IMG/VR virus record: IMGVR_UViG_2648501461_000010
Location: 1-30,723 of that record
Source of the DNA: a virus
Lineage: Duplodnaviria > Heunggongvirae > Uroviricota > Caudoviricetes
Strand: one strand, 5' to 3'
DNA length: 30,723 nucleotides
The number at the start of each line of letters is the position of its first letter. The stretch's first letter is position 1. A program made the position numbers and the translations under genes. Shown here one piece after another: positions 411-22,356 of this stretch. The notes below the pieces were generated by a model, which saw only the letters and a program-made list of their open reading frames with translations, was not told where the DNA came from and did not search any database.

Positions 411-1259
411 CTATTTAATACTCAGCAACTGCTCGACGGTCATATTTTTAATTGCGCCCCGGTTTATGAGAGTCCATCCCTGCTTTTCCAGATAAAAACG
501 GAAAGTATCCAGAGTACAGACCAGTGCGCCATCAGGAACGGTTTCGGTGAATTTGATGTAGCCGTGTTCGTCGAAGCGGATAACCAGGGTTCGGTCATCA
601 CCCGGGATTATTTTGTCAGCGGGTGTGGTGTTATTCCGGCGCAGTTCTTCCTCCATGCGGTCGAACTCGGCAATGTAGGCTTCCTTGAATGCAGCGGCCT
701 TTTTGCCGGTGAAGCCCATCACCAGGAAAACGAAGCCGTTTTTGGTGATTTGGTAGGCATTGTAGGTATTGCCACGGTGCTCGAATTTAACCCGCGAAAA
801 GTTGCTGGTTAAAAAGCGTTCAGAACATTCGAGGGCCTCTATTTTTTGAACAACATGGTGATGCTGCTTGCCGAAGAATTCTGCGATCGCAATAGACGTA
901 GTGACTGCGCGACCATTTTCAATGGTTACGTCAGGGTGAGAAAGGGTAAGGGTAGTAGCCATGATGGCATCCTCAAGTGTTAAGTTAATTAACTCACCAC
1001 CGAGGCTTTCCACGACCATAAGGGTGGCGAGACGTACAGGGGTGGAAATACCGGTCACTCGAGAACCCGGCCAGCCTTGCAGCTGCCCTGCACGCCCCAC
1101 CATTATCTGAATGTGGCTGTGCTTAACGCATAAAAAAACCGCTTCGGCGCGGTTATGCGCTCGAGTAACTTTCGGGTTTCCACGCCCGGCACCCGGTTTA
1201 TGAGGTGCAGGTGCACTATAATTCCACCCGTACTGGTTTTCAATAGCTACATTCAACAT
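411..1259 (-). CDS. Rha-family phage regulatory protein
   Basis: Central segment (VTTSIAIAEFFGKQHHHVVQKIE...GNTYNAYQITKNGFVFLVMGFTGKKAAAFKEAYIAEFDRMEE) fits the Rha domain. An internal ATG at 962 has a good RBS (GAGGA, 7-nt spacer) and would start the protein just before the Rha domain, so the true start may be 962 rather than 1259. Confidence 0.6.
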   Translation of the reverse strand: MLNVAIENQYGWNYSAPAPHKPGAGRGNPKVTRAHNRAEAVFLCVKHSHIQIMVGRAGQLQGWPGSRVTGISTPVRLATLMVVESLGGELINLTLEDAIMATTLTLSHPDVTIENGRAVTTSIAIAEFFGKQHHHVVQKIEALECSERFLTSNFSRVKFEHRGNTYNAYQITKNGFVFLVMGFTGKKAAAFKEAYIAEFDRMEEELRRNNTTPADKIIPGDDRTLVIRFDEHGYIKFTETVPDGALVCTLDTFRFYLEKQGWTLINRGAIKNMTVEQLLSIK

Positions 1260-1437
1260 TTTCTCTTACCTTTCATCACCGAAGTGAACTTTGTTGATGC
1301 GGTGTCTGGTGCCTCCAGGTGACGTTAACCAGTTAACAATTAACGCCGGATACAGAGAATCCACCCATAACACTGTTTTTGGTTTTAACTGTTCCGCGTG
1401 CGCTCAGCCGCATTCACCGCATCACAAAATTCACTTT

Positions 1438-1495
1438 AAAAAGGGCGGCAGAGCAGTCACGGAGTAAAACTGATACCGCCAAACGTCACCAGAAA
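1438..1495 (-). ncRNA. dicF: DicF-like small RNA (cell-division inhibitor sRNA of Qin/Rac-type prophages)
   Basis: Minus-strand sequence UUUCUGGUGACGUUUGGCGGUAUCAGUUUUACUCCGUGACUGCUCUGCCGCCCUUUUU matches my recollection of E. coli DicF, including the 3' GC stem plus U-run; it lies downstream of a ydfA-like leftward operon as in Qin. Identification is from memory, not a search. Confidence 0.55.
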
Positions 1496-2847: not shown

Positions 2848-3135
2848 TCAGATAGGGAAGGGAAATTGTCGGCGGGCATGCACAATATTTGCAATTTCAA
2901 TGCTTGAAGTTGCTACTCGGTACAAAACGATATAATTAGGGTGAACCACAATTTCCCGCAAACCGGATACTCGATCACTTGGCGGATATAGATATGGATG
3001 CTCAGAGAGGGCTAAAACAGACGTTTCAATCCGTATTTTTAGTCTGCGTGCTGCAGGAATATTTTCCTTAGCAATATAGGCTACGATCTGACGCAAATCA
3101 TCGCGAGCAGATGGTAGCCACAAAATGGGTAACAT
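2848..3135 (-). CDS. type II toxin, RelE/ParE family
   Basis: 95-aa protein with the typical ParE/RelE pattern (RDDLRQIVAYIA...REIVVHPNYIVLYRV...EIANIVHARR); its start overlaps the upstream antitoxin stop by 1 nt (TAATG). Confidence 0.75.
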   Translation of the reverse strand: MLPILWLPSARDDLRQIVAYIAKENIPAARRLKIRIETSVLALSEHPYLYPPSDRVSGLREIVVHPNYIVLYRVATSSIEIANIVHARRQFPFPI

Positions 3136-6307: not shown

Positions 6308-6994
6308 ATGACCCCAATAAAAATATTTATGACTATTGCTGATTTCAAACGGCCTAAATTGGAGCTCCCAAACGGGGCAAACAAACTACTACTGCACTCT
6401 TGCTGTGCTCCATGTTCCGGTGAAGTGATGGAGGCGCTTCAGGCCTCGGGAATCGACTACACCATCTTTTTCTACAACCCGAACATTCATCCTCAGAAAG
6501 AGTATTTAATTCGTAAGGATGAAAATATTCGCTTTGCTGAACAACACGGCGTGCCGTTTATCGATGCTGATTACGACACCGACAACTGGTTTGAACGTGC
6601 CAAAGGAATGGAATGGGAGCCTGAGAGGGGGATCCGTTGTACCATGTGTTTTGACATGCGTTTTGAGCGGACAGCGTTGTACGCTGCTGAAAATGGTTTC
6701 AGTGTGATCAGCAGTTCACTGGGCATTTCACGCTGGAAAAATATGCAGCAGGTTAACGAGTGTGGGCGGCGAGCTGTTGCGCATTATCCGGGTATGGTGT
6801 ACTGGGATTATAACTGGCGCAAGCAGGGCGGCTCGTCCCGTATGATTGAAATCAGCAAGCGCGAAAAATTCTATCAGCAGGAATATTGTGGCTGTGTGTA
6901 TTCTCTGCGCGATACCAATCTACACCGCAAATCTCAGGGGCGCCCTCTTATCAAAATTGGCCAACTCCACTACGGAAAAGAAGAGAAGGAGTGA
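6308..6994 (+). CDS. queH: epoxyqueuosine reductase QueH (DUF208 family)
   Basis: N-terminal [11 protein letters not shown] motif plus downstream conserved Cys residues and a size of about 225 aa are characteristic of QueH. Alternative start ATG at 6329. Confidence 0.75.
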
Positions 6995-7231
6995 TTTTAT
7001 GGATCACCTTTCTGATTGATTTCATATTGGCGAGGTGACGTGAGTTAAGTAGAATTGCTGCGGGTGCTTGAGGCTATCTGCCTCAGGCATGAACACCAAA
7101 AGGCAGATAGAGAAAAGCCCCAGTTAACATTACGCGTCCTGCAAGACGCTTAACATTAATCTGAGGCTCAATCCATGCTGAACACATGTAGGTTAGCCTC
7201 TTACGTGCCGAAAGGCAAGGAGAAGCAGGCT

Positions 7232-7387
7232 ATGAAGCAGCAAAAGGCGATGTTAATCGCCCTGATCGTCATCTGTTTAACCGTCATAGTGACGGCACTG
7301 GTAACGAGGAAAGACCTCTGCGAGGTACGAATCCGAACCGGCCAGACGGAGGTCGCTGTCTTCACAGCTTACGAACCTGAGGAGTAA
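7232..7387 (+). CDS. Hok/Gef-family type I toxin
   Basis: MKQQKAMLIALIVICLTVIVTALVTRKDLCEVRIRTGQTEVAVFTAYEPEE matches the Hok consensus (transmembrane helix, LTRK..LCE, EVA..AYE); RBS AAGGAGAAG; followed by the typical structured 3' end and terminator. Confidence 0.8.
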   Translation: MKQQKAMLIALIVICLTVIVTALVTRKDLCEVRIRTGQTEVAVFTAYEPEE

Positions 7388-8896: not shown

Positions 8897-9271
8897 ATGC
8901 GTATTGAGTTTGTTTTGCCTTATCCGCCGACGGTGAATACTTACTGGCGACGTCGTGGCAACACATATTTTGTATCAAAAGTCGGTGAGCGTTATCGCCG
9001 TGATGTGGCGCTAATTGTTCGCCGGCAGCGGTTAAAATCAAACCTGTCCGGAAGGCTGGCGATAAAGGTGATTGCAGAGCCACCGGATAAGCGCCGTCGT
9101 GACCTGGACAATATCCTGAAAGCACCACTGGATGCGCTGACGCATGCCGGACTACTTATAGACGACGAGCAGTTTGATGAAATCAATATTGTGCGCGGTC
9201 AGCTCGTTCCTGGTGGTCGGTTGGGCGTGAAGATTTACGAAATAATGCATGACGGGCAGGTCCAAAAATGA
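8897..9271 (+). CDS. rusA: Holliday junction resolvase RusA
   Basis: Conserved motifs (LPYPPTVNTYW, DKRRRDLDNILKAPLDALTHAGLLIDDEQ) shared with E. coli RusA; RBS AAGAGG before the ATG at 8897. Confidence 0.85.
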   Translation: MRIEFVLPYPPTVNTYWRRRGNTYFVSKVGERYRRDVALIVRRQRLKSNLSGRLAIKVIAEPPDKRRRDLDNILKAPLDALTHAGLLIDDEQFDEINIVRGQLVPGGRLGVKIYEIMHDGQVQK

Positions 9272-10089
9272 GACTGGAAGATTTACCGAAATACTATTCC
9301 CCAAAATCGCCAGGCCTGACTGATGCATCCGTCTCGACGTCAAAAGATGCGCTGAGCATCACTGATGTGATGGCTGCGCAGGGTATGACACAAAACCGGG
9401 CTGAGATGGGATTTTCTGCGTTCCTGGGGAAAATGGGTATTAGTATGAATGACAGGGCGCGGGCAACAGAATTACTGGCAGATTATGCATTAAGTCAGTG
9501 CGATCGCGTGGCGGCGTTAAGAAAACTTCCGGCAGAAATAAAACCGGCAGTGATGCGCATTATGGCTTCGTATGCTTTTGAGGATTATGCCCGCAGCGCA
9601 GCGAGTAAAAAGCAGTGCCCCTGTTGCCGAGGGGAAAAATTTATTGAAAGCGAAGTTTTTACAAACAAGGTTCAGTATCCGGATGGCAAGCCGCCAGTAT
9701 GGGCAAAGTGTACGAAAGGTGTGTATCCGTCTTACTGGGAAGAATGGAAAAAAATCCGGGAGGTGGTGAAAGTTTCTTGTCCTGAATGTAAAGGGAAGGG
9801 GGAGATTTCCACTGCCTGTAAAGACTGCCGTGGGCGTGGTGTTGCCATTCATCGTGAAGAGTCGGAAAAACGGGGTATGCCTGTAATCAGGAACTGCCAG
9901 CGTTGTGGCGGTCGGGGCTATGAAAGACTACCATCAACGGAGGCATTTAATGCCATACGCAAAGTGACGAGTGCTATCACGCTTGATACGTGGAAAAAAT
10001 CAGTGAAACGCTTTTACGATACGTTGGTGGTTCGGTTTGACATTGAAGAGGCATGGGCGGAGCGGCAGTTAAAGAGGGTAACGCGATAG
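9268..10089 (+). CDS. late-gene antiterminator Q (zinc-finger type)
   Basis: 273 aa with repeated CxxC zinc-finger motifs (CPCCRGEK, CPECKGKGE, CKDCRGRG, CQRCGGRG); positioned between rusA and the late promoter/lysis region; start overlaps the rusA stop (ATGA). Confidence 0.7.
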   Translation: MRLEDLPKYYSPKSPGLTDASVSTSKDALSITDVMAAQGMTQNRAEMGFSAFLGKMGISMNDRARATELLADYALSQCDRVAALRKLPAEIKPAVMRIMASYAFEDYARSAASKKQCPCCRGEKFIESEVFTNKVQYPDGKPPVWAKCTKGVYPSYWEEWKKIREVVKVSCPECKGKGEISTACKDCRGRGVAIHREESEKRGMPVIRNCQRCGGRGYERLPSTEAFNAIRKVTSAITLDTWKKSVKRFYDTLVVRFDIEEAWAERQLKRVTR

Positions 10090-10328: not shown

Positions 10329-11048
10329 ATGGGTATGGATGACAGCACTCTGCTGAGGAACTCTTCACTTTTTATTGCTTATATGGGCTGTCTTGGATGG
10401 GGAAGCGCTTATTTCTATGGATGGGGGACTTCCTTTTACTATGGCTTTCCATGGTGGATCGTCGGGGTTGGCGTTGATGATGTGGCCCGAAGTTTGTTTT
10501 ATGCTGTGAGCGTTATCGTTATATTCCTTACTGGATGGGGAGTAGGTATTGTTTTCTTTTTAGGCATAAAACAAAAAAACAATATACAGAATTTGAGTTT
10601 TATCAGACTTTTTCTGGCAATATTGCTGCTTTTTATTCCGCCTGTTCTGGAGTTTTCGGTAATTCATCAGCACGTTGAGCCAGATGTGCTGTTTTTTTGT
10701 GTTATTGCTGCCTTTACAATTACGCTTTTTGTCAGGTCAGGAAGAAGACTTATTTCAGTCAAATGTTTTTCGGAAGTGTCTTTTATTCGCCATCACCGAA
10801 TTGAGTTTATTATGGCTGGATTCATGATTTATTTCTGGACATTCTCTCTTATTGCCGGTTGGTATAAACCCCAGTTTAAGAGGGAATATCAGACGATCCA
10901 CTATGAGAATACTTGGTATTACGTTCTTGCACGCTATGATGATCGTCTGGTTTTATCGAAATCGTACAGTAATGGGAGTTCTGCATTCGTTATACTTAAT
11001 AGCGGGCAGATTGATGACTTTGAAATTAATGTAGTCAGAGTTCGTTAA
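10329..11048 (+). CDS. hypothetical integral membrane protein (about 5 predicted TM helices plus a C-terminal soluble domain), cargo gene in the Q-to-lysis slot
   Basis: 239-aa ORF that is markedly AT-rich relative to its flanks; hydrophobic stretches around residues 12-32, 55-78, 90-108, 118-135 and 158-176, then a roughly 60-aa polar C-terminus. No family recognised. Confidence 0.6.
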   Translation: MGMDDSTLLRNSSLFIAYMGCLGWGSAYFYGWGTSFYYGFPWWIVGVGVDDVARSLFYAVSVIVIFLTGWGVGIVFFLGIKQKNNIQNLSFIRLFLAILLLFIPPVLEFSVIHQHVEPDVLFFCVIAAFTITLFVRSGRRLISVKCFSEVSFIRHHRIEFIMAGFMIYFWTFSLIAGWYKPQFKREYQTIHYENTWYYVLARYDDRLVLSKSYSNGSSAFVILNSGQIDDFEINVVRVR

Positions 11049-11132: not shown

Positions 11133-11161
11133 TTGCAGAGCTAAACTGGCATAAGTATTAT
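11133..11161 (+). promoter_or_regulatory. candidate sigma70 promoter of the tRNA cluster
   Basis: TTGCAG, 17-bp spacer, TATTAT, ending 9 nt before the first tRNA. Confidence 0.45.
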
Positions 11162-11170
11162 TCCGCATAT

Positions 11171-11246
11171 GGCCCTTTAGCTCAGTGGTGAGAGCGAGCG
11201 ACTCATAATCGCCAGGTCGCTGGTTCAAATCCAGCAAGGGCCACCA
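11171..11246 (+). tRNA. tRNA with CAU anticodon (tRNA-Ile2 type, lysidine-dependent, or tRNA-Met)
   Basis: 76-nt cloverleaf by manual folding, anticodon loop CUCAUAA, 3' CCA encoded; close to my recollection of E. coli ileX. Confidence 0.8.
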
Positions 11247-11247
11247 A

Positions 11248-11324
11248 CCGCCACTAGCTCATCAGGAAAGAGCGTCAACCCTTTAAGTTGAGAGTGCGAG
11301 GTTCGAGTCCCCGGTGGCGGTCCA
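11248..11324 (+). tRNA. tRNA-like gene, anticodon UUU (Lys) with atypical C33
   Basis: 77-nt cloverleaf by manual folding: 7-bp acceptor stem, D-loop with GG, TPsiC loop UUCGAGU, encoded CCA; anticodon stem UCAAC/GUUGA with loop CCUUUAA. Position 33 is C instead of the near-universal U, and the T-stem has one A-C mismatch. Confidence 0.55.
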
Positions 11325-11326
11325 GT

Positions 11327-11402
<76 letters not shown>

Positions 11403-11405
11403 TAT

Positions 11406-11480
<75 letters not shown>

Positions 11481-11687: not shown

Positions 11688-11711
11688 GCCCGCTTTTGCG
11701 GGTTTTTCTTT
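11688..11711 (+). terminator. rho-independent terminator between the tRNA cluster and the lysis genes
   Basis: Stem GCCCGC / GCGGG(T) with loop TTTT followed by TTTTTCTTTT. Confidence 0.5.
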
Positions 11712-11772: not shown

Positions 11773-11988
11773 ATGAAATCCATGGACAAAATTTCAACGG
11801 GCATTGCCTACGGCACCTCCGCAGGCAGTGCTGGCTACTGGTTTTTACAGTGGCTTGATCAGGTCAGTCCGTCACAGTGGGCTGCGATTGGTGTTCTGGG
11901 GAGTCTGGTTCTGGGCTTCCTGACTTATCTGACAAATCTGTACTTCAAAATCAGAGAAGACAAGCGTAAGGCTGCACGGGGAGAGTAA
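11773..11988 (+). CDS. S: class II holin (phage 21 S-like pinholin) with dual-start motif
   Basis: 71-aa protein [71 protein letters not shown] closely matches my recollection of phage 21 S; Met1 and Met4 give the antiholin/holin dual start; RBS GGAGGTGAGG. Confidence 0.85.
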
Positions 11989-11992
11989 TTCA

Positions 11993-12307
11993 ATGACTCA
12001 AAACTATGAACTGATTGTGAAAGGGATCCGCAATTTTGAGAATAAAGTTACGGTAACTTTAGCGTTACGGGACAAAAAACGCTTTGACGGTGAAATTTTT
12101 GACCTGGACATCTCGCTGGACCGTGTTGAAGGTGCAGCGCTGGAGTTTTATGAGGCAGCAGCCAGAAGGAGCATCAGACAGGTCTTCCTGGATGTTGCTG
12201 CCGGGTTATGTGAAGGGGACGAGCTGTTGCCAGAAACGCGCCCCTGTTCAGAGGCGCGGTATACCATAAAAATTAACAGTTCTGATAACTCGATTACAGG
12301 TTGTTAG
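11993..12307 (+). CDS. hypothetical soluble protein (104 aa) inserted between holin and endolysin
   Basis: ORF starting 5 nt after the holin stop with an RBS (GGGGAGAG); no TM segment, no recognised family; not part of the canonical S-R-Rz cassette. Confidence 0.5.
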   Translation: MTQNYELIVKGIRNFENKVTVTLALRDKKRFDGEIFDLDISLDRVEGAALEFYEAAARRSIRQVFLDVAAGLCEGDELLPETRPCSEARYTIKINSSDNSITGC

Positions 12308-12362
12308 CTTTTTGCAGTTGGCTTTCCAGTATCTTTCATTGGTAGCATCCTGATAAATATCC

Positions 12363-12896
12363 ATGAGCGCAAAAATCAAATACGGCCTGTCAGCTGCGGT
12401 TCTGGCGCTGATTGCTGCAGGTGCGTCTGCTCCTCAAATACTTGACCAGTTTCTGGATGAAAAAGAAGGTAACCACACAACGGCATACCGCGATGGGGCC
12501 GGCATCTGGACCATCTGTCGGGGTGCCACGATGGTGGATGGAAAACCCGTTTTTCCCGGTATGAAACTGTCGAAGGAAAAATGCGACCAGGTCAACGCCA
12601 TTGAGCGTGATAAGGCGCTGGCATGGGTGGAGCGCAATATTAAAGTACCAATGACCGAACCACAAAAAGCGGGTATCGCGTCATTCTGTCCCTATAACAT
12701 TGGCCCCGGTAAGTGTTTTCCGTCGACGTTTTATAAGCGGCTGAATGCCGGTGATCGTAAGGGCGCATGCGAGGCGATTCGCTGGTGGATAAAAGATGGT
12801 GGGCGCGATTGCCGCATACGTTCAAATAACTGCTATGGACAGGTTATTCGTCGTGACCAGGAAAGCGCATTAGCCTGTTGGGGGATAGATCAGTGA
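12363..12896 (+). CDS. R: SAR endolysin (T4-lysozyme-like muramidase, GH24)
   Basis: N-terminal Gly/Ala-rich weakly hydrophobic signal-anchor-release segment ([17 protein letters not shown]) and a Glu-8aa-Asp-5aa-Thr catalytic triad (E...YRDGAGIWT); pairs with the pinholin. Confidence 0.85.
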
Positions 12897-13357
12897 GCAG
12901 AGTCGCCGCGATTATTTATGCTCTGGTTATTTGCATCATCGTCTGCCTGTCGTGGGCGGTCAATCATTACCGTGATAACGCCATCGCCTACAAAGAACAG
13001 CGTGATAAAAAAGTCAGTGAGCTGAAGCAGGCGATCGCCACCATCGCTGACATGCAGCAGCGTCAGCGTGATGTTGCTGCGCTCGATGCAAAGTACTCGA
13101 GAGAATTAGCCAATGCGAAAGCTGAAAATGAAACTCTGCGCGCTGATGTTGCCGCTGGTCGTCGTCGGTTGCACATCAAAGCAGTCTGTCAGTCAGTGCG
13201 TGAAGCCACCACCGCCTCCGGCGTGGATAATGCAACCAGCCCCCGACTGGCAGACACCGCTGAACGGGATTATTTCACCCTCAGAGAGCGGCTGATGACG
13301 ATGCAGATGCAACTGGAAGGGGCACAGGAGTATATCCGCACTCAGTGCATTAAGTAG
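12893..13357 (+). CDS. Rz: i-spanin Rz
   Basis: GTG start overlapping the endolysin stop (AGTGA); N-terminal TM helix then coiled-coil region; contains an embedded Rz1 gene in the +1 frame. Confidence 0.8.
13113..13295 (+). CDS. Rz1: o-spanin Rz1 (outer-membrane lipoprotein)
   Basis: Embedded within Rz in an alternative frame; lipobox LVVVGC and a proline-rich stretch (KPPPPPAW), typical of Rz1. Confidence 0.8.
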
Positions 13358-13399
13358 CCTTTTTATCGTGGTAAACATTTCGCAGGGTATGAGGTATTT

Positions 13400-13750
13400 A
13401 TGCCATCACGAATCCCACGCGCCTGCCGTAAGCGTGGATGTGTAGGTACAACCACAGACAGTTCTGGTTACTGCGATAAACATCGTGGCGAAGGATGGGT
13501 ACAGCATCAACGCGGACTGAGCCGCCACCAGCGTGGCTATGGCTCGAAATGGGATGCCATACGTGCGCGCATACTGAAGCGTGATAATCATCTGTGTCAG
13601 AACTGCCTGCGCAATGGGAGAGCCGTTGAAGCCAGAACTGTGGACCACATCATTCCGAAAGCTCATGGTGGCACGGATGCAGACAGTAACCTGCAGAGTC
13701 TGTGCTGGCCCTGTCATAAAGCAAAAACAGCGCGCGAACGCATCAATTGA
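13400..13750 (+). CDS. HNH endonuclease (terminase-associated)
   Basis: Cys-rich 116-aa protein with HNH motif (DHIIPKAHGGTDADSNLQSLCWPCHKAK); located just upstream of the terminase small subunit, as in HK97-like cos phages. Confidence 0.85.
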   Translation: MPSRIPRACRKRGCVGTTTDSSGYCDKHRGEGWVQHQRGLSRHQRGYGSKWDAIRARILKRDNHLCQNCLRNGRAVEARTVDHIIPKAHGGTDADSNLQSLCWPCHKAKTARERIN

Positions 13751-13897
13751 TAACAGTTCCCATCTGTAGGGGAGGGGCGGGTCAAATCTCTGCAACCCTG
13801 GCTGCTCAGTACCGCCGCCTGACCTTTCCTCGCATCGCCGCAGGTTCGAAAACTTTTTTTTGGAATGTGATTAAATGATTGATAGGTAAAACCGATT

Positions 13898-14380
13898 ATG
13901 TCTGGACCCCCGAAAACCCCGCCACGCCTGCATTTGATACGAGGCAACCCCTCAAAGCGGCCAGTTAAAGACCTCAAAAAAACCGCTAAAAAGGATGAAA
14001 AAGGTCTCCCTAAAATTCCGCAACATTTAGGGGCGCAGGGGAAGTACTGGTTCAGGCGAATGGCGGAAGAGCTGAATGCGGAAGGGATCATTTCTCAGCT
14101 TGATGCGCGTGCGCTTGAGCTACTGGTGGAAGCCTATACCGAATACCGGCATCACTGCGAAACACTCGATGTTGAGGGGTACACCTACCGCTCGGAAACG
14201 CAGAACGGTGATGTGCTGATTAAGGCACACCCGGCTGCTGCGATGAAAGCGGATGCCTGGAAGCGGATCCGGGCGATGCTTGCAGAATTTGGTATGTCAC
14301 CGGCAAGCCGGGCAAAAGTAAATACCGCCGGACCGGATAATGTTGATCCGCTGGCAGAGCTTTTAAAAGCGAGAGACTGA
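13898..14380 (+). CDS. terminase small subunit (P27 family)
   Basis: 160-aa protein directly upstream of and overlapping the large terminase start (ATGA); sequence character typical of P27-type small terminases. Confidence 0.8.
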   Translation: MSGPPKTPPRLHLIRGNPSKRPVKDLKKTAKKDEKGLPKIPQHLGAQGKYWFRRMAEELNAEGIISQLDARALELLVEAYTEYRHHCETLDVEGYTYRSETQNGDVLIKAHPAAAMKADAWKRIRAMLAEFGMSPASRAKVNTAGPDNVDPLAELLKARD

Positions 14381-16137
14381 TGGCAAAAGTGGCTGACGGG
14401 ATCCGCTACGCCGAACGTGTTGTTGCAGGAGAAATTGTTGCTGGCGAATTTGTCCGCCTGGCCTGCCAGCGTTTTCTTGATGATCTGAAGTACGGCGAAA
14501 AGCGGGGGATTTATTTCAGTGAACCCCGTGCGCAGCACATCCTGAATTTCTACAAATTTGTGCCTCATGTAAAAGGGGCACTGGCAGGCCAGCCCATTGA
14601 GTTGATGGACTGGCATGTATTTATCCTCATTAATATTTTTGGTTTTGTCATTCCGCTGGTCAATGAAGAAACCGGGGAAGTTGTCATGCGCAGCGATGGC
14701 AGCGGACGTCCGGTGATGGTGCGCCGGTTCCGGACGGCGTACAACGAAGTCGCCCGTAAAAACGCAAAATCAACCCTGTCATCGGGTATCGGCCTGTATA
14801 TGACGGGGGCAGATAGTGAAGGCGGAGCTGAGGTGTATTCAGCCGCAACCACGCGTGACCAGGCCAGAATCGTGTTTGAAGACGCCAAAAATATGGTCAG
14901 AAAAGCCCGGTCGACACTCGGGCGGTTGTTTGATTTCAACAAGCTGGCGATTTACCAGGAGCAGAGCGCATCAAAATTTGAACCGCTTTCCTCGGATGCA
15001 AACAACCTGGACGGTCTGAACATCCACTGCGCCATTATTGATGAGCTGCATGCACATAAAACCCGCGACGTGTGGGACGTTCTGGAAACGGCAACCGGTG
15101 CCCGTCTGCAGTCCCTGTTATTTGGTATCACCACGGCTGGCTTTAACAAGGAAGGGATTTGTTACGAGCAGCGTGATTACGCCATCAAGGTATTGCGAGG
15201 CTATAACAGCGACGTGGAGGGCGCTGTAAAAGACGACTCTTACTTTGCGATCATTTACACGCTCGATGAGGGAGATGATCCGTTTGATGAAACGGTCTGG
15301 CAGAAAGCGAATCCTGGCCTGGGCATCTGTAAACGCTGGGATGATCTGCGTCGTCTGGCGAAAAAAGCGAAGGAGCAGGTCTCTGCGCGGGTGAATTTTT
15401 TTACCAAACACATGAATGTGTGGGTCACTGCCGAATCTGCCTGGATGGATATGATTAAGTGGGAGAAGTGCGAATACATTGCTCCACAACATGAGCTGAA
15501 AACATATCCCATGTGGGTCGGCGTCGACCTTGCTCATAAGATTGATATCTGTGCGGCGGCAAAACTCTGGCGAACCGATAACGGACATGTTCATGCTGAT
15601 TTTAAATTCTGGCTTCCGGAAGGACGGCTGGAACGATGCTCGCGGCAGCAGGCAGAACTTTACCGGAAGTGGGCGGAGATGGATAAGCTCATCCTGACGG
15701 ATGGTGATGTTATCGATCATGCTCAGATAAAAAGTGACTTACTGGAATGGATTGGCGGTGAAAACCTCAGGGAACTGGGATTTGACCCGTGGAGCGCAAT
15801 GCAGTTCAGTCTGGCACTGGCTGAAGAAGGGATACCGCTGGTGGAGGTTCCGCAGACGGTCCGCAATCTGTCAGAGGCCATGAAGGAAACGGAATCACTG
15901 GTTTATGCCGGGCGTTTCCATCACAGCAATCATCCGGTCATGAACTGGATGATGTCTAACGTTACTGTAAAACCGGACAAAAACGACAACATCTTCCCGA
16001 ATAAATCCACGCCGGAAGCCAAAATCGACGGCCCTGTTGCGCTTTTTACAGCCATGAGCCGCTTTCTGGTAAATGGCGGGGGCGTGAATGACTTTCTGTC
16101 CACGCTTGATCCTGATGAGGACCTGTTAATTCTGTGA
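14380..16137 (+). CDS. terminase large subunit
   Basis: 585-aa protein with ATPase then nuclease regions, positioned between the small terminase and portal. Confidence 0.9.
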   Translation: MAKVADGIRYAERVVAGEIVAGEFVRLACQRFLDDLKYGEKRGIYFSEPRAQHILNFYKFVPHVKGALAGQPIELMDWHVFILINIFGFVIPLVNEETGEVVMRSDGSGRPVMVRRFRTAYNEVARKNAKSTLSSGIGLYMTGADSEGGAEVYSAATTRDQARIVFEDAKNMVRKARSTLGRLFDFNKLAIYQEQSASKFEPLSSDANNLDGLNIHCAIIDELHAHKTRDVWDVLETATGARLQSLLFGITTAGFNKEGICYEQRDYAIKVLRGYNSDVEGAVKDDSYFAIIYTLDEGDDPFDETVWQKANPGLGICKRWDDLRRLAKKAKEQVSARVNFFTKHMNVWVTAESAWMDMIKWEKCEYIAPQHELKTYPMWVGVDLAHKIDICAAAKLWRTDNGHVHADFKFWLPEGRLERCSRQQAELYRKWAEMDKLILTDGDVIDHAQIKSDLLEWIGGENLRELGFDPWSAMQFSLALAEEGIPLVEVPQTVRNLSEAMKETESLVYAGRFHHSNHPVMNWMMSNVTVKPDKNDNIFPNKSTPEAKIDGPVALFTAMSRFLVNGGGVNDFLSTLDPDEDLLIL

Positions 16138-16154
16138 AACAGCTTATTACTGAT

Positions 16155-16295
16155 ATGACCGGGCTGATCGGTTTCGGTCTGCTCACTGCTGGCGTTTATC
16201 TGTATGCAGGTCTGCCAGCGTCTCTGATGCTGTCTGGCTGTTTGTTGCTGCTTTATGCACTGGTGGTGTCCATGAGGAGAAAACATGCTTCTTGA
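16155..16295 (+). CDS. possible small membrane peptide (46 aa) between terminase and portal
   Basis: Short ORF below the track threshold, translated by eye (MTGLIGFGLLTAGVYLYAGLPASLMLSGCLLLLYALVVSMRRKHAS); hydrophobic; no clear RBS; overlaps the portal start by 11 nt. Confidence 0.25.
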   Translation: MTGLIGFGLLTAGVYLYAGLPASLMLSGCLLLLYALVVSMRRKHAS

Positions 16296-17511
16296 TGCTC
16301 TGTTTCGCAGTGAGCCTCTGGAAAATCCCTCGGTTCCGGTAACCGGAGAGGCCGCTGAGACGGATAATATTTTTGCCCGGGATGTGTATGTCAGTCCGGA
16401 AACGTCCATGAGGCTGGCTGCTGTCTATGCCTGTATTTATGTTATTTCATCCAGTGTGGCTCAGATGCCCCTGCATGTGATGCGAAAAACGAATGAGCAT
16501 GTTCAGCCGGCACGCGATCACCCGTTGTTCTGGCTCGTTCATGATGAACCGAATGCCTGGCAGACCAGCTATAAGTGGCGGGAACTGAAGCAGCGTCATG
16601 TGCTGGGGTGGGGCAATGGTTATACGTGGGTGAAACGTAATCGTCGTGGCGAGGTTACCAGTCTTGAATGCTGTATGCCATGGGAAACCACGTTACTTAA
16701 CACTGGAGGGCGTCATACCTACGGTGTGTATAACGAAGAGGGTGCATTTGCGGTAAGTCCGGACGACATGATCCATATCAGGGCGCTGGGAAACAATCAG
16801 AAAATGGGACTGAGTCCGATCATGCAGCATGCTGAAACCATTGGTATGGGAATGAGTGGTCAGCAGTATACCAGTGCTTTTTTTAACGGTAATGCCCGTC
16901 CTGCCGGGATTATTTCTGTGAAAAATGAACTGAACGAACAGAGTTGGAGCAGGCTCAAGAATATGTGGCAGCGGGCGGTGACAGCGCTTCGCAGTCAGGA
17001 AAATAAAACCATGCTGCTGCCTGCGCAACTGGATTACCGTGCCCTGACAGTTTCTCCGGTGGATGCTCAGATCATTGATATGACCAAGCTGAACCGGTCG
17101 ATGATTGCCGGAATTTTTAATGTCCCGGCGCACATGATTAATGACCTGGAAAAAGCCACATTTTCGAATATTACACAGCAGGCGATTCAGTTTGTTCGCT
17201 ACACGATGATGCCCTGGGTTGCGAACTGGGAGCAGGAGCTTAACCGTCGCCTGTTTACCCGCACAGAACGGGCTGCCGGGTATTACGTTCGTTTCAACCT
17301 TACAGGATTGCTCCGCGGGACTCCACAGGAGCGTGCGCAGTTTTATCACTTTGCCATTACAGATGGCTGGATGAGCCGGAATGAAGCGAGGGCATTTGAG
17401 GACATGAACCCGGTTGATGGTCTGGATGAAATGCTGGTCAGCGTAAATGCAGCAAATCCGTTGAATGATTTTAAAGATACGAAAGGCAAAGAGGAAAAGA
17501 ACGATGAATGA
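16285..17511 (+). CDS. portal protein (HK97 family)
   Basis: 408-aa protein after the terminase with RBS GAGGAG; followed by prohead protease and major capsid in canonical HK97 order. Confidence 0.9.
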   Translation: MLLDALFRSEPLENPSVPVTGEAAETDNIFARDVYVSPETSMRLAAVYACIYVISSSVAQMPLHVMRKTNEHVQPARDHPLFWLVHDEPNAWQTSYKWRELKQRHVLGWGNGYTWVKRNRRGEVTSLECCMPWETTLLNTGGRHTYGVYNEEGAFAVSPDDMIHIRALGNNQKMGLSPIMQHAETIGMGMSGQQYTSAFFNGNARPAGIISVKNELNEQSWSRLKNMWQRAVTALRSQENKTMLLPAQLDYRALTVSPVDAQIIDMTKLNRSMIAGIFNVPAHMINDLEKATFSNITQQAIQFVRYTMMPWVANWEQELNRRLFTRTERAAGYYVRFNLTGLLRGTPQERAQFYHFAITDGWMSRNEARAFEDMNPVDGLDEMLVSVNAANPLNDFKDTKGKEEKNDE

Positions 17512-18103
17512 CCGTGAAACGCGCTGTTACAGCGGGGAAGTGCGGGCAGAACAATATGATAATGCCCCGACTCATATTTTGGGGTATGGCTCGGTATTTA
17601 ACAGTCGTTCAGAACCTCTGTGGGGATTTCGTGAAATCATCAAGCCGGGGGCTTTTGACGACGTGCTGAATGATGATGTACGTGGATTGTTTAATCATGA
17701 TCCTAATTTCATTCTCGGACGAAGTTCTGCCGGCACGTTGTCATTATCAGTGGATGAACGTGGTTTGCGTTACGACATTGTTGCACCGGATACGCCGACG
17801 ATTTGTGACCTGGTGCTGTCACCAATGTTGCGTGGTGACATTAATCAGTCCTCGTTCGCGTTTCGCGTCGCTCGTGATGGAGAGAGCTGGTATGAAGACG
17901 ACGAGGGGATTGTTATCCGGGAAATCACGCGCATTTCTCGTCTGTATGACGTCAGCCCGGTGACATATCCGGCCTATCAGGACGCAGACTCTGGTGTCCG
18001 CTCAATGAAAGCCTGGCAGGAAGCGCGGGCGAGTGGTGCGCTGAAGAAAGCTGTTAACGAACGAATGGCGCGTGAGCGTCTTTTGACCCTTCTTAATGCA
18101 TAA
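17504..18103 (+). CDS. prohead maturation protease (HK97 family)
   Basis: Start at ATG 17504 (RBS AAAGAGGAAAAG) overlapping the portal stop; position and size typical of the HK97 prohead protease. Confidence 0.85.
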   Translation: MNDRETRCYSGEVRAEQYDNAPTHILGYGSVFNSRSEPLWGFREIIKPGAFDDVLNDDVRGLFNHDPNFILGRSSAGTLSLSVDERGLRYDIVAPDTPTICDLVLSPMLRGDINQSSFAFRVARDGESWYEDDEGIVIREITRISRLYDVSPVTYPAYQDADSGVRSMKAWQEARASGALKKAVNERMARERLLTLLNA

Positions 18104-18117
18104 GGATACTACTGACG

Positions 18118-19335
18118 ATGAAACTTCATGAGATGAAGCAAAAACGAAACACCATTGCAAAGGATATGCGTGCACTGCATGAAAAAATTGGTGATAACGC
18201 ATGGACTGATGAGCAACGGGCAGAGTGGAACAGGGCGAAAGCTGAGCTGGATGCGCTGGATGAGCAAATCGCCCGTGAAGAAGAGTTGCGCCGTCAGGAT
18301 CAGGCATATGTGGATGAGTCCGGGCCGGAAGAGCGCCAGAATAATGAGGCGGAGAACGGGAAAAAGGCGGTGGAAGAGAAGCGCGCTGCGGCATTTAACC
18401 GTTTTCTGCGTGCCGGATTTGCAGAACTGAATGCTGAAGAGCGTAATCTGATGCGTGAACTGCGGGCTCAGAGTGTAACAACGGATTCTCAGGGCGGATA
18501 TACGGTGCCCACGCAGATGCGTAACAAAATCATTGACACCATGAAGGCTTATGGCGGGATTGCCAGTGTTGCGCAACTTCTGACCACATCAACCGGGCAG
18601 GATATCACCTGGTCAACGTCTGATGGCACGACTGAAGAGGGCGAACTGCTGGCGGAAAATACAGCCGCAACGGAACAGGATGTGACGTTCGGGACCGCTA
18701 TTCTGGGGGCTAAAAAGCTGTCATCAAAAATAATTCGTGTGTCCAATGAGCTGCTCCAGGACAGTGGGGTGGATATTGAATCTTATCTGGCAAACCGTAT
18801 TGCCCAGCGTATTGGTCGTGGAGAGGCGAAATATCTGGTTCAGGGGACCGGAACGGGATCACCGTTACAGCCAAAAGGGCTGGCAGCGTCGGTGACGGGA
18901 ATCATCCAGACTGCAGCCTCTGCCGCTTTCACCTGGAAAGAAATGAATGCCCTGAAACATGCCATTGATCCGGCATATCGTGGTGGGCCGAAATACCGCT
19001 GGGCATTCAATGATGCCACATTGCAGACTATTGAAGAGATGGAGGATGGACAGAAACGCCCGTTATGGCTGCCGGATATTGCAGGCGGTACGCCGGCTAC
19101 TGTGCTGGGGATCCCTTATGTTATTGATCAGGCTATTGACGGGATTGGTACCGGAAAAAAATTCATTTTCCTGGGGGATTTCAACCGCTTTATCATTCGC
19201 CGCGTTACTTATATGGAACTGAAACGTCTGGTTGAGCGTTATGCTGAGTTTGATCAGGTGGCATTTCTGGCTTTCCATCGTTTTGACTGTGTGCTGGAAG
19301 ATGTGGCAGCCATCAAGGCGCTCACTGGCAAATAA
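18118..19335 (+). CDS. major capsid protein (HK97 fold) with N-terminal delta/scaffold domain
   Basis: 405 aa; N-terminal roughly 100 aa is charged coiled-coil (delta domain) followed by the capsid body; canonical position after the protease. Confidence 0.9.
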   Translation: MKLHEMKQKRNTIAKDMRALHEKIGDNAWTDEQRAEWNRAKAELDALDEQIAREEELRRQDQAYVDESGPEERQNNEAENGKKAVEEKRAAAFNRFLRAGFAELNAEERNLMRELRAQSVTTDSQGGYTVPTQMRNKIIDTMKAYGGIASVAQLLTTSTGQDITWSTSDGTTEEGELLAENTAATEQDVTFGTAILGAKKLSSKIIRVSNELLQDSGVDIESYLANRIAQRIGRGEAKYLVQGTGTGSPLQPKGLAASVTGIIQTAASAAFTWKEMNALKHAIDPAYRGGPKYRWAFNDATLQTIEEMEDGQKRPLWLPDIAGGTPATVLGIPYVIDQAIDGIGTGKKFIFLGDFNRFIIRRVTYMELKRLVERYAEFDQVAFLAFHRFDCVLEDVAAIKALTGK

Positions 19336-19356
19336 CCACTCGTTGTTCAGTTACAG

Positions 19357-19378
19357 ACCGCGCCGACGCGGTTTTTTT
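19357..19378 (+). terminator. rho-independent terminator after the major capsid gene
   Basis: Stem ACCGCG / CGCGGT with loop CCGA followed by a 7-T run. Confidence 0.55.
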
Positions 19379-19411
19379 ATGCCCGCACAGTGTTGCGGGC
19401 AGGAGTTTCTG

Positions 19412-19729
19412 ATGGCAGCAATAGTGGAAAAACTCAGGGCGCAGTGCCGTATTGATACAGATGATGCAACTGATGATGAGTTACTGATGCTGTATTTCCG
19501 GGCTGCCTGCCGCAAGGCAGAAAATTTTATCAACCGTAAGCTTTATGAGGAGACGGTGCCGGAAGGTGATCCTGAAGGGGTGCTTATAGCTGATGATGTT
19601 TTGCTGGCGCTCATGTTGCTGGTCGGGCACTGGTACGAAAACCGGGAAAATTCCTCAGATGTCAGCAAGGCACCAGTCCCGTTTGGTTTTTCTTCTCTGC
19701 TGGAGCCTTATCGTTTTATTCCTTTGTAG
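19412..19729 (+). CDS. head-tail connector protein (gp6-like)
   Basis: Start at ATG 19412 with RBS CAGGAG; the longer track ORF from 19232 overlaps the capsid gene and terminator; position after the capsid gene. Confidence 0.7.
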   Translation: MAAIVEKLRAQCRIDTDDATDDELLMLYFRAACRKAENFINRKLYEETVPEGDPEGVLIADDVLLALMLLVGHWYENRENSSDVSKAPVPFGFSSLLEPYRFIPL

Positions 19730-19737
19730 GAGGAGAC

Positions 19738-20076
19738 ATGCAGGCGGGCAGATTACGTGATCGCGTAATTATTCTGAATGTCACCACCGCCCGCTCTCCG
19801 TCAGGGCATCCGGTGGAGACGGTGACGGAGGGAGCTACCGTATGGGCAGAAGTTAAGGGTATCAGCGGGAGGGAGATAATCTCAGGCGGAGCAGAAACCG
19901 CTCAGGCTACGGTCAGAGTCTGGATGAGATTCCGGCGCGATGTGACAGCGACTTCACGTCTGAAAGTGCTGACCGGTGCATTTAAAGGGGCCATTCTGGG
20001 TATAGAAGGTCCACCAATACCGGATGCACGCGCTACCCGGCTTGAAATACTCTGCAGCCTGAAGGGGAATGTGTGA
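19738..20076 (+). CDS. head closure / head-tail adaptor protein
   Basis: 112-aa protein with strong RBS AGGAGGAG, in canonical position. Confidence 0.7.
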   Translation: MQAGRLRDRVIILNVTTARSPSGHPVETVTEGATVWAEVKGISGREIISGGAETAQATVRVWMRFRRDVTATSRLKVLTGAFKGAILGIEGPPIPDARATRLEILCSLKGNV

Positions 20077-20522
20077 TGGATTTCAGTCTTGATTTTTCCG
20101 GCCTGGCGGATATTGCACGGGATTTGGAGACGCTCAGCAGGGCAGAAAACAATAAGGTTCTGCGCGATGCCACCCGTGCCGGTGCTGAAGTTATGCGGGA
20201 TGCAGTTGTTGAACGTGCGCCGGAGCGAACCGGGAAACTGAAGAAAAATGTGGTTGTTCTCACTCAGCGTTCAAAGCGTCGGGGGGAAATTATCTCGGGT
20301 GTCCACATTCGCGGACGGAACCTGCGAACCGGAAACAGTGATAACAGCATGAAAGCCAGCGATCCCCGAAATGCATTTTACTGGCGCTTTGTGGAGCTGG
20401 GAACGATAAACATGCCCGCGCATCCATTCATTCGCCCGGCTTTCGATACGACAGAGGAACTGGCAGCACGGATTGCCATACAGCGAATGAATCAGGCTAT
20501 TGATGAGGTCTTAAGTAAATGA
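20076..20522 (+). CDS. HK97 gp10-like neck/tail-attachment protein
   Basis: About 148 aa; start at ATG 20076 overlapping the upstream stop; position in the head-tail joining module. Confidence 0.7.
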   Translation: MDFSLDFSGLADIARDLETLSRAENNKVLRDATRAGAEVMRDAVVERAPERTGKLKKNVVVLTQRSKRRGEIISGVHIRGRNLRTGNSDNSMKASDPRNAFYWRFVELGTINMPAHPFIRPAFDTTEELAARIAIQRMNQAIDEVLSK

Positions 20523-20863
20523 GAGAGGCCACACTGTATTCCCTGTTGTCTCAGCTGGCCGGAGGACAGGTTTATCCTTATGTGGTCCCACTGACGGAGG
20601 GAAAGCCTGCGGTATCTCCGCCGTGGCTGGTGTTTTCTGTGGTGTCTGACACGGCATCTGATGTGCTTGATGGGCAGGCTGAATCCAGAATTACCGTGCA
20701 GATCGATGTCTGGGCGACAGTACCTGATGACGCAGATAATATTCGTGAGCAGGCGCTTGATGCGGTAAGAAAACTGGCACCCTCCGTTATTTCTAAAACG
20801 CAGGGTTATGATCCTGACTCCCGTCTGAGCAGAGCCACGCTTGAATTCCAAGTAATAGCCTGA
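20519..20863 (+). CDS. tail completion / tail terminator-like protein
   Basis: 114-aa ORF overlapping the upstream stop (ATGA); last gene before the major tail protein. Confidence 0.65.
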   Translation: MREATLYSLLSQLAGGQVYPYVVPLTEGKPAVSPPWLVFSVVSDTASDVLDGQAESRITVQIDVWATVPDDADNIREQALDAVRKLAPSVISKTQGYDPDSRLSRATLEFQVIA

Positions 20864-20884
20864 GGTCATTAATGATTTTACCCA

Positions 20885-20907
20885 CCCGCCGCTGGCGGGT
20901 TTTTTTA
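20885..20907 (+). terminator. rho-independent terminator upstream of the major tail gene
   Basis: Stem CCCGCC / GGCGGG with a 3-nt loop followed by a 7-T run. Confidence 0.5.
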
Positions 20908-20923
20908 TTTTCAGGAGACGAGT

Positions 20924-21628
20924 ATGTCCTCTAATTTTGAGCGTTCGCAACTGACGAAAATTATGATTTCGTCTGCACCGGTAACAGCAGAAACCCTGGA
21001 TTCTGCCAGCTATCTTGGCCTGAGCTGTACAATCAAAGAGGTGCAGTTTACCGCAGGACAAAAGCAGGATATTGATGTCACCACGCTGTGTTCTGTTGAG
21101 CAGGAAAATATTAACGGCCTTGGGGCTGCTTCAGAGATTTCCATGTCAGGCAACTTTTATCTGAATGCTGCCCAGAACGCGTTGCGCAGTGCCTATGACA
21201 ATGACACCACGTATGGCTTTAAAGTTATTTTTCCGTCAGGCAACGGATTTACCTTTATGGCAGAGGTGCGTCAGCATACCTGGTCTGCAGGAACCAATGG
21301 TGTTGTGGCTGCAACGTTTTCCTTGCGCCTGAAAGGTAAACCTGTGCTGACGACAGAGCCGCTGAAAGTGAAGGCCGATTTAAAAAGCACGCTGCGGGTT
21401 GCTTCCGGAGCGAAACTTGAAATGGCGGTTGAGGCTGCGGGTGGTGTGCCGCCTTATTCTTATGTCTGGAAGAAAGGTGGTTCTCCTGTTTCCGGACAGA
21501 CGGCGGCAACGTTCAGTAAGGCATCGGCAGTATCCGGTGATGCGGGTGCATATACCTGCGAGATTTCTGATTCAGCAAGCCCGGTTAACAAAGTGACCTC
21601 CACTTCCTGCACTGTAACCGTCAGTTAA
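20924..21628 (+). CDS. major tail protein with C-terminal Ig-like domain
   Basis: 234 aa with RBS AGGAG; the C-terminal roughly 90 aa (VPPYSYVWKKGGSPVSGQTAATFSKASAVSGDAGAYTCEISD) looks like a bacterial Ig-like domain, as on lambda V-type tail tube proteins. Confidence 0.85.
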   Translation: MSSNFERSQLTKIMISSAPVTAETLDSASYLGLSCTIKEVQFTAGQKQDIDVTTLCSVEQENINGLGAASEISMSGNFYLNAAQNALRSAYDNDTTYGFKVIFPSGNGFTFMAEVRQHTWSAGTNGVVAATFSLRLKGKPVLTTEPLKVKADLKSTLRVASGAKLEMAVEAAGGVPPYSYVWKKGGSPVSGQTAATFSKASAVSGDAGAYTCEISDSASPVNKVTSTSCTVTVS

Positions 21629-22014
21629 TGAGGATGGATGTGATGACTAAAAATATCCGTAATCTGGCACTGGCAACGATGTCGGGGTTTCGCCATAAAA
21701 CCGTTGATGTGCCTGAATGGGAGGGAGCAACGGTTGTGTTACGGGAACCTTCTGCAGAAGCCTGGTTGCGCTGGCAGGAGATCGTTAAAGCAAAAGATGA
21801 TGAGACACCGTTATCCGTTGCGGAGCGCGCCCGCCGAAATCTGGAGGCAGATGTTGAACTGTTCATTGATGTTCTGTGTGATACCGGACTGCAACCCGTA
21901 TTTTCAGAGGATGATCGTGAACAGGTGATTGCCGTGTATGGCCCGGTGCATGCGCGGCTTCTTCGGCAGTCTCTGGAACTGATCAGTGATGCCGGCGAGG
22001 TTAAAAAAAAGTAG
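21628..22014 (+). CDS. tail assembly chaperone (G-like)
   Basis: Precedes the tape measure gene; its 3' end carries a slippery heptamer that connects it to the downstream T-like frame. Start may be the ATG at 21643. Confidence 0.75.
   Translation: MRMDVMTKNIRNLALATMSGFRHKTVDVPEWEGATVVLREPSAEAWLRWQEIVKAKDDETPLSVAERARRNLEADVELFIDVLCDTGLQPVFSEDDREQVIAVYGPVHARLLRQSLELISDAGEVKKK
22005..22011 (+). other. programmed -1 ribosomal frameshift site (slippery heptamer A_AAA_AAG) for the G-T fusion
   Basis: A AAA AAG lies in the zero frame 3 nt before the G stop codon; a -1 shift reads GTA GCG CTT CCG GGG ATG CGT..., which is the frame of the 22026..22316 ORF. Confidence 0.65.
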
Positions 22015-22025
22015 CGCTTCCGGGG

Positions 22026-22316: not shown

Positions 22317-22324
22317 GTCAACAT

Positions 22325-22347
22325 AACCGCTTCGGCGGTTTTTTTTC
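22325..22347 (+). terminator. terminator-like hairpin upstream of the tape measure gene
   Basis: Stem AACCGC / GCGGTT with loop TTCG followed by an 8-T run. Confidence 0.45.
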
Positions 22348-22356
22348 GTCCGGAGA

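Follow-up and report, generated by a model that had tools for sequence, protein, structure and literature searches.

Transfer RNA genes can shift isotype through mutation of the anticodon, a process termed remolding, and some eukaryotic initiator tRNAs naturally carry C at position 33. Host tRNA-Lys(UUU) is cut between positions 33 and 34 by the anticodon nuclease PrrC (PMC2275089, PMC2610378) and is likewise targeted by AriB of the PARIS system, which cuts it at C40|A41 (PMC12409363, PMC11464382). AriB cuts within U36AAUC|A41; the U39A change prevents this cleavage altogether, and A41C and U16C make it less efficient (PMC12409363). P2-OLD requires paired CNG motifs in the anticodon stem, and host tRNA-Lys is a lesser target of this nuclease (PMC12445682). 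Phage tRNA-Lys variants rescue infection from PrrC170, whereas host tRNA-Lys does not (PMC11555353). The present analysis concerns a 30,723-nt stretch of DNA (positions 1 to 30,723 of IMG/VR record IMGVR_UViG_2648501461_000010; hereafter, the window), which represents a lambdoid siphovirus prophage of E. coli, and within it a tRNA gene at 11248-11324 (+) that we refer to as Lys*, with a UUU anticodon and C in place of the canonical U33. An original prediction, made from the sequence alone, had proposed that this gene is either a nuclease-resistant replacement or a decayed pseudo-tRNA; its premise that tRNA-Lys(UUU) is a target of anticodon nucleases is supported by the studies of PrrC, AriB and P2-OLD cited above. 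Judged by its sequence, Lys* belongs by descent to the lambdoid-phage argN/argO tRNA-Arg family, and by anticodon it is a tRNA-Lys. We give an even chance to the view that it is a remolded tRNA, marginally functional or already a relic, that is kept by linkage inside a selected cassette.

Lys* is 77 nt long and, as read from the sequence, folds into a cloverleaf with an encoded CCA: CCGCCAC UA GCUC AUCAGGAAA GAGC G UCAAC CCUUUAA GUUGA GAGUG CGAGG UUCGAGU CCCCG GUGGCGG U CCA. ARAGORN called tRNA-Lys(ttt) at exactly 11248-11324 (+) as the second of four adjoining tRNAs, and the Rfam tRNA model (RF00005) gave Lys* 45.1 bits (E=1e-6 over the whole window), which is above the gathering score of 29 and below the 65-74 bits of its neighbours. 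In RefSeq, identical copies are named tRNA-Lys, not pseudogene, by PGAP (NCBI). The good cloverleaf and encoded CCA noted in the original prediction were therefore upheld, and the predictors used, ARAGORN among them, returned no pseudogene call. Stems of 7, 4, 5 and 5 bp are present, as is the whole canonical core (U8, A14, G18-G19, T54-Psi55-C56, A58 and a purine at 37). The anticodon loop, CCUUUAA, spans 11280-11286, with C32 at 11280, C33 at 11281, the anticodon (U34-36) at 11282-11284, A37 at 11285 and A38 at 11286; discriminator U73 lies at 11321 and CCA at 11322-11324. In the full-length cmscan alignment, the C at 11281 stood under the consensus U33, the residue that forms the U-turn, with full posterior probability, and the sole non-standard pair flagged was T-stem pair 51-63 (A11299 and C11311). 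Both the loop and the A-C mismatch were thus as predicted. Realignment had been raised as a means of recovering a canonical U33; however, enumeration of linker and loop lengths gave five stem pairs in one register only, so realignment cannot restore U33 in Lys*. Minimum-free-energy folding gave nothing on Lys*, as the host-identical Thr and conserved Met tRNAs of the same cassette also misfolded relative to the cloverleaf.

We compared Lys* with phage and host tRNAs. It was 83.1% identical to argN of the Shiga toxin (Stx) phage Stx2a_F349 and 79.2% identical to argN of phage 933W, and the pair that it forms with the preceding ileZ-type tRNA (called Met by ARAGORN, and referred to here as the Met tRNA) was 91.6% identical to ileZ+argN of Stx2 phages. 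With argN and argO it shares the acceptor stem CCGCCAY/RTGGYGG with C1-G72, the D arm with A20, the T arm and the encoded CCA. Like argN specifically, it bears U73 and occupies the slot directly after an ileZ-type tRNA, behind the same promoter-like element and between Q and the lysis/toxin genes. It differs from them in its anticodon (UUU rather than the UCG of argN or the UCU of the argO type), in having C33 rather than U33, and in its downstream partners, which are copies of host thrU and glyT rather than argO. Thus, the body and slot of the family are present in Lys*, while the Arg anticodon (NCU or NCG, with C35) is absent, position 35 being U. In contrast, comparison with the host lysT family, likewise proposed in the original prediction, failed to reveal kinship: Lys* was 51.9% identical to K-12 lysT overall, all five anticodon-stem pairs differed, and U73, C1-G72 and C33 stood against A73, G1-C72 and U33, respectively. 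The two are alike in 6 of 7 loop bases (CCUUUAA and CUUUUAA), including the anticodon and U36-A37-A38.

Scanning metagenome contigs with a pattern spanning the 5' acceptor strand and D arm yielded 120 family members, ~83% of which carry canonical tRNA-Arg loops (CUUCGAA, CUUCUAN, CUCCUAA or CUCCGGA). Their anticodon stems include many compensatory variants (CCAGC/GCUGG, CGGAG/CUCCG, UAGAG/CUCUA, GCAGC/GCUGU and UCAAC/GUUGA), and we regard the argN/argO-type set as a genuine phage tRNA-Arg family. Compensatory change was visible only at this depth; among 13 close variants covariation was not significant, as a single double-sided change was seen and 146 of 500 shuffled alignments did equally well. 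The nearest canonical relative of Lys* was L200, an Arg(UCU) tRNA of 88.3% identity that shares its anticodon stem, UCAAC/GUUGA. The loops of the two differ solely at positions 33 and 35 (CUUCUAA in L200, CCUUUAA in Lys*), and both changes, U33C and C35U, are transitions. The one-step intermediate loop CCUCUAA, an Arg(UCU) tRNA with C33, was seen once, in locus L166, on another sequence background. Pair 51-63 varies across the family, being A-U in L200 and L132, G-C in L135 and G·U in 933W argN, while A51·C63 occurs in F349 argN as well as in Lys*; we accordingly read the A-C mismatch as one of several forms taken by this pair, which most relatives keep standard, and not necessarily as decay.

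Lys* resembles remolded tRNAs in joining the body of one isotype to the anticodon of another, and resembles C33 tRNAs in lacking U at position 33. It is unlike either in combining the two changes in one phage elongator-type tRNA, whose function after the shift is putative. Within the literature collection searched, no paper describing ileZ/argN/argO or Lys* was found; intact copies of Lys* are already in RefSeq as tRNA-Lys, and we found no published description of them. Two observations concern other family members. The F349 argN (L001, 1578-1654) has a G3·U70 acceptor wobble and U7·G66 in addition to A51·C63, whereas 933W argN has G3-C70; G3·U70 is an alanine identity element. Loci L137, L138 and L141 are chimeric: a family Arg(UCU) tRNA contributes the 5' two-thirds and the downstream tRNA-Gly contributes the 3' end, a fusion that apparently arose through deletion between the two T arms, and ARAGORN made no tRNA call there.

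Lys* was present in 771 of 5,426 complete E. coli genomes (~14%), at 828 places. C33 is fixed in it: the exact 30-nt anticodon-arm segment including C33 was found at 791 of the 828 places (~95%), and the same segment with U33 gave no match in either the E. coli genomes or the IMG/VR viral contigs. In IMG/VR, the order Met-Lys-Thr-Gly was seen in 95 of ~125 loci, with a minority being Met-Lys-Arg(UCU) or Met-Arg-Arg. Apart from two unrelated metagenome-assembled genomes, an exact T-arm scan of species-representative genomes matched E. coli and Shigella only, and wider relatives surfaced only with the acceptor and D arm pattern.

We next asked how strongly Lys* is constrained, using 56 loci with a common downstream region; the T arm of Lys* was ascertained in this sample, and nt 1-47 were not used for ascertainment. 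Nucleotide diversity was 0.019 across the whole of Lys* and 0.030 in nt 1-47, compared to 0.006, 0.004 and 0.007 for the Met, Thr and Gly tRNAs, respectively. In holin S it was 0.029 at third codon positions and 0.0015 and 0.0010 at first and second positions, and in the intergenic region it was 0.016. Diversity of Lys* (0.019-0.030) is therefore on par with that of synonymous sites and 3-8 times that of the neighbouring tRNAs. Likewise, Lys* held 7 non-singleton polymorphic sites, whereas its neighbours, with 227 nt in all, held 5 (p=0.014), and the contrast held when the ascertained T arm was left out (p=0.003). Lesions were also frequent. Whereas the 5' half was intact at 369 of the 828 E. 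coli copies, 227 carried a 1-nt deletion in the D stem, typical of PPompW-type prophages of enterohemorrhagic E. coli with a downstream Arg(UCU), and 188 carried a C4U/U8C/C11U haplotype. Half of the copies are thus damaged by either the D-stem deletion or the U8C haplotype, and both alleles are lineage-associated. Neither has a PGAP annotation or an Rfam tRNA match at E<0.01, whereas the tRNAs beside them score 51-73 bits, mostly 72-73. Taken together, the near-synonymous diversity and frequent lesions indicate that Lys* is under weak purifying selection, while the remainder of the cassette is clearly more constrained; the evolution of Lys* looks near-neutral.

Loss of U33 was not confined to Lys*. 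We ran ARAGORN over all fetched loci and sorted the calls with a scripted family filter. Outside the family, 580 tRNAs had U33 and none had another base, with one C33 tRNA-Lys(ttt) that the script filed there being taken, presumptively only, as a Lys* copy missed by the filter. Family members with an Arg anticodon numbered 107 with U33 and 1 without, while those with a non-Arg anticodon numbered 1 with U33 and 146 without. The latter set consists of Lys* (C33) and a sister subfamily of 78 nt (A33; L130, L132-L136, L139, L142-L149, L157, L185, L243 and L251) with acceptor, D and T arms of the Lys* type and loops CAUAUAA, CAUUGNN or CAUUAUU, some having 6 or 8 nt. This subfamily fails the Rfam tRNA model, and its members nonetheless retain 86-100% identity where their flanks are unrelated; the discriminator changes with the anticodon (G73 with UUG, mostly A73 with UAU), and the variable positions cluster in the anticodon loop (3 of 5; p=0.014). 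Yersinia phage YeP2 has a homologue whose sole annotation is an antisense hypothetical protein. Across the family, therefore, members that have lost the Arg anticodon have also lost U33, with one exception. Since just two or three independent lineages are involved, the association is suggestive rather than statistical. It fits an inactivating loss of U33 after which the anticodon drifts freely, a second mutation that removes a harmful mis-decoding tRNA, or selection by nucleases acting at position 33.

The anticodon UUU, mainly, and A73 are determinants for lysyl-tRNA synthetase (LysRS), whereas C35 is the main determinant for arginyl-tRNA synthetase (ArgRS), which also recognizes A20. Lys* has the anticodon of an E. 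coli-type tRNA-Lys and lacks A73 and relatedness to lysT, its U73 being inherited from argN; on the ArgRS side A20 is retained and C35 is lost. Determinants for N6-threonylcarbamoyladenosine at position 37 (t6A37) are present, namely U36-A37-A38 and the D-stem pairs G10-C25, C11-G24 and U12-A23. No feature of Lys* looks tuned to lysine charging. We also considered codon supply as the reason for a phage tRNA-Lys. Relative to host codon values, phage genes were enriched in ACA, GGA and AUA, and also in the Arg codons AGA, AGG, CGA and CGG; AAA, in contrast, was not enriched, and we rejected codon supply on this ground. Given this usage, conversion from Arg to Lys would have cost the phage a useful rare-codon tRNA-Arg in exchange for a tRNA reading a codon that the host already serves well.

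The cassette that holds Lys* has the order Ile2(CAU)-Lys*-Thr(UGU)-Gly(UCC). It is flanked by Q and the lysis genes, in the slot that ileZ-argN-argO and stx occupy in Stx phages. Spacers within the cassette are 1-3 nt, those flanking Lys* being 1-2 nt. The first gene (11171-11246, +; Rfam 72.5 bits) is the ileZ-type tRNA with anticodon CAU, called Met-CAT by ARAGORN and annotated as tRNA-Ile in Stx phages, and it is identical to ileZ of Stx2a_F349. The tRNA-Thr(UGU) (11327-11402, +) and tRNA-Gly(UCC) (11406-11480, +), both called by ARAGORN, are 100% copies of host thrU and glyT, each 100% identical in 5421 of 5426 E. coli genomes; the pair (11327-11480, +) corresponds to host thrU and glyT with the intervening tyrU removed. 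Upstream of the cassette is a promoter-like element (11133-11161, +) comprising a -35 hexamer TTGCAG (11133-11138), a 17-nt spacer and a -10 hexamer TATTAT (11156-11161), followed by 9 nt to the first tRNA. A simple consensus scan overlooked it because its -35 hexamer fits at just 3 of 6 positions. It corresponds to the element annotated in phage 933W as 'pT; putative tRNA promoter', and the layout TTGCAR/TTGNNN-17-TATTAT-9 nt precedes the ileZ-type tRNA in 201 of 206 loci. Since hexamers and spacing are retained although spacer sequences differ, the cassette looks like an autonomous unit, and one that would also be read through from the late promoter. A terminator-like G+C hairpin with a T run (11688-11703, +) separates it from holin S, and an analogous terminator is annotated after argO in 933W. 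BLAST homology to other loci usually starts at 11156-11171 and extends downstream into the lysis genes.

We favor a remolded, weakly functional or relic Lys* because the sole quantitative evidence on selection, diversity and lesion frequencies, points there. On this account, the ancestor was of Arg(UCU) type, its loop being CUUCUAA and its stem UCAAC/GUUGA, and U33C and C35U turned that loop into CCUUUAA. We infer that Lys* is co-transcribed with three well-conserved tRNAs from the cassette promoter, with Q-dependent read-through in addition, and is probably processed as its neighbours are. Given the UUU anticodon and U36-A37-A38, LysRS would be able to charge it and t6A37 could be formed on it; with a U-turn weakened by C33 and a U73 that is not the LysRS discriminator, however, it would be at best a poor supplementary tRNA-Lys. 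It may therefore confer little or no selected benefit and now be drifting, persisting because it is wedged, by 1-2-nt spacers, between tRNAs under selection. Several findings weigh against this account. The most common stem changes in Lys* are C-to-U transitions that retain G·U pairs and may hence be tolerated by a working tRNA. Its anticodon arm is its least variable part despite the varying 5' half, reversion to U33 was seen in none of the 828 E. coli copies, and the cassette occurs in many unrelated phage backgrounds. Conservation of the A33 subfamily across unrelated flanks suggests that members without U33 can be maintained, and in prophages weak constraint would equally be expected of a gene that pays off only when certain defence systems are met. 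The proposal of a decayed pseudo-tRNA has real support in the near-neutral diversity and the lesions in half of the copies; against it stand the window copy, which is structurally intact and above the tRNA threshold, and the nearly invariant arm.

Less probably, though as the chief rival, Lys* may be a working, nuclease-insensitive tRNA-Lys(UUU) that is charged by LysRS and sustains AAA/AAG decoding once PrrC, AriB or, to a lesser extent, P2-OLD has cut its host counterpart, to the benefit of phage or lysogen. The published precedents are T5 tRNA-Lys acting against PARIS and the phage variants acting against PrrC170 (PMC11555353 for the latter). At the positions where AriB requires U39, C40|A41 and U16, Lys* has G39, U40, U41 and C16; its anticodon stem contains no CNG motif, and C rather than U adjoins the 33|34 bond cut by PrrC. 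Lys* thus combines the anticodon of the nuclease target with changes at recognition positions, and it is predicted to escape AriB and OLD, mostly owing to its Arg-type arm; evasion is possible on these grounds. Fixation of C33 and the arm in ~95% of copies with zero revertants fits such a role, as do lysine codons that are not rare, so that codon supply does not account for a phage tRNA-Lys, and a promoter that would permit expression in lysogens. The t6A37 determinants also fit, as U33 is not among the bases that the bacterial enzyme contacts specifically (PMC13276492). Lys* further resembles T5 tRNA-Lys and the variants that overcome PrrC170 in being phage-borne, in bearing the anticodon of the host target and in differing at positions read by AriB, where T5 tRNA-Lys(UUU) has A39, C41 and C16 and Lys* has G39, U41 and C16. 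T5 tRNA-Lys, however, has proven cleavage resistance and rescues infection in a virulent phage with 24 tRNA genes, whereas Lys* resides in a temperate phage, derives from tRNA-Arg, bears C33 and U73 and is weakly constrained, its resistance being putative. The AriB-relevant differences stem mostly from Arg ancestry rather than from changes in the Lys* lineage, LysRS would not find its discriminator in U73, and near-neutral diversity with damage to 50% of copies is not what this reading would favor. Nor is the cassette as a whole hardened: its tRNA-Thr(UGU) retains UAAUCA and U16, recognized by AriB, and the CUG/CAG stem motif recognized by OLD, and thrU is the preferred substrate of P2-OLD (PMC12445682) and a primary AriB target. 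The prophage thereby raises the copy number of a host tRNA that is low-copy and sensitive to nucleases, and does not supply a resistant variant (thrU is also a target of HepS). In the tRNA set of another coliphage, possible nuclease-insensitivity changes lie at loop positions 1, 6 and 7 and never at 33 (PMC12482277), and we found no trigger tying lambdoid phages to PARIS or PrrC. The original proposal of a nuclease-resistant replacement thus has some support in the missing AriB and OLD determinants and the C33 at the PrrC site, and is weakened by the Arg origin of most differences and the host-identical Thr. Doubtful, but worth stating, is the view that loss of U33 was itself selected rather than a product of decay, Lys* being a functional C33 elongator that sustains lysine decoding under PrrC or RloC, which cut at or beside position 33, or under AriB, which cuts in the stem. 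It would then be expressed from its own promoter in lysogens and in lytic growth, and a new anticodon joined to a non-U33 base on one Arg scaffold would be the signature of a way for phages to make nuclease-proof tRNAs with a changed identity. Behind this view are the repeated pairings of C33 with UUU and of A33 with UAU or UUG, with matching discriminators.

Two further readings assign Lys* roles other than ordinary decoding. It is unlikely, though consistent with the 1-3-nt spacers and with the failure to observe a clean deletion of Lys* among ~110 cassettes, that Lys* is a non-decoding, tRNA-shaped RNA serving either as processing punctuation (for RNase P and 3' maturation of its packed neighbours) or as a decoy for enzymes that target tRNA-Lys. 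The 78-nt subfamily, with its variable loop and well-conserved body, has the pattern expected of such an RNA, and competition by viral tRNAs was raised as a possibility in the AriB study (PMC12409363). In Lys*, however, the pattern is reversed, the arm being invariant and the body variable; the decoy role is conjectural; and copies with a damaged body (D-stem deletion or U8C) persist beside intact neighbours, indicating that the cassette does not need an intact Lys* fold. We consider it very improbable that Lys* tunes a programmed -1 frameshift in the tail-assembly chaperone genes, where the heptamer A_AAA_AAG would be decoded wholly by tRNA-Lys(UUU). The G-like open reading frame (ORF) at 21628-22014 does end in GTT AAA AAA AAG TAG, a -1 slip at 22005-22011 leads into the frame of the T-like ORF (22026-22316) directly before the tape measure gene, and a single PHROG family (phrog_14766) covers both ORFs. 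Host tRNA-Lys is abundant, however, and, coming from several gene copies (five in one K-12 locus), should dominate decoding; only two other loci extend to the tail-chaperone gene, too few for an association, and nothing ties C33 to slippage. Related locus L032 has one A fewer in its A_AAA_AAG run.

If Lys* works, it would be a natural bacterial/phage elongator tRNA that decodes without U33, and the first temperate lambdoid case of a counter-defence by resistant tRNA so far described for virulent phages such as T5, carried by about 1 in 7 E. coli genomes, including many pathogen lineages. If it is instead a relic, two transitions suffice to turn a phage rare-codon tRNA-Arg into something that pipelines call tRNA-Lys, and caution is warranted regarding the E. 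coli prophages in which RefSeq lists hundreds of 'tRNA-Lys' features, these being of Arg ancestry and doubtful function. Either way, the link between anticodon change and loss of U33 across the family is directly testable.

The remainder of the window is organized as follows. In the early region, a repressor-like helix-turn-helix protein, a replication protein and RusA precede the Q antiterminator (9268-10089), which is directly followed by two terminator-like hairpins; holin, endolysin, spanin, terminase, portal, capsid, tail and tape measure genes lie at 11773-25590. We considered whether a resistant tRNA might be paired with a nuclease or defence system of the prophage itself, and rejected this, as PADLOC, Pfam and NCBIfam scans of 20 ORFs found no known nuclease or defence gene, returning just a packaging-type HNH (13400-13750) and a weak RelE-like match, the latter to a RelE/StbE-like ORF at 2848-3135 (-). 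Between Q and the cassette, at 10329-11048 (+), is a gene for a 239-aa multi-pass membrane protein (phrog_1521) that had no Pfam, NCBIfam or PADLOC match. Rfam matches in 1020-1494 (-) comprise a C4 antisense RNA (1020-1107), isrK (1132-1208) and DicF (1443-1494), and the sok antitoxin RNA matched at 7062-7237 (+). Finally, a 228-aa protein encoded in the early (nin) region (6308-6994, +) matched Pfam QueH, epoxyqueuosine reductase (E=1.1e-65), an enzyme of queuosine tRNA modification; queuosine-bearing tRNAs are the targets of colicin E5.

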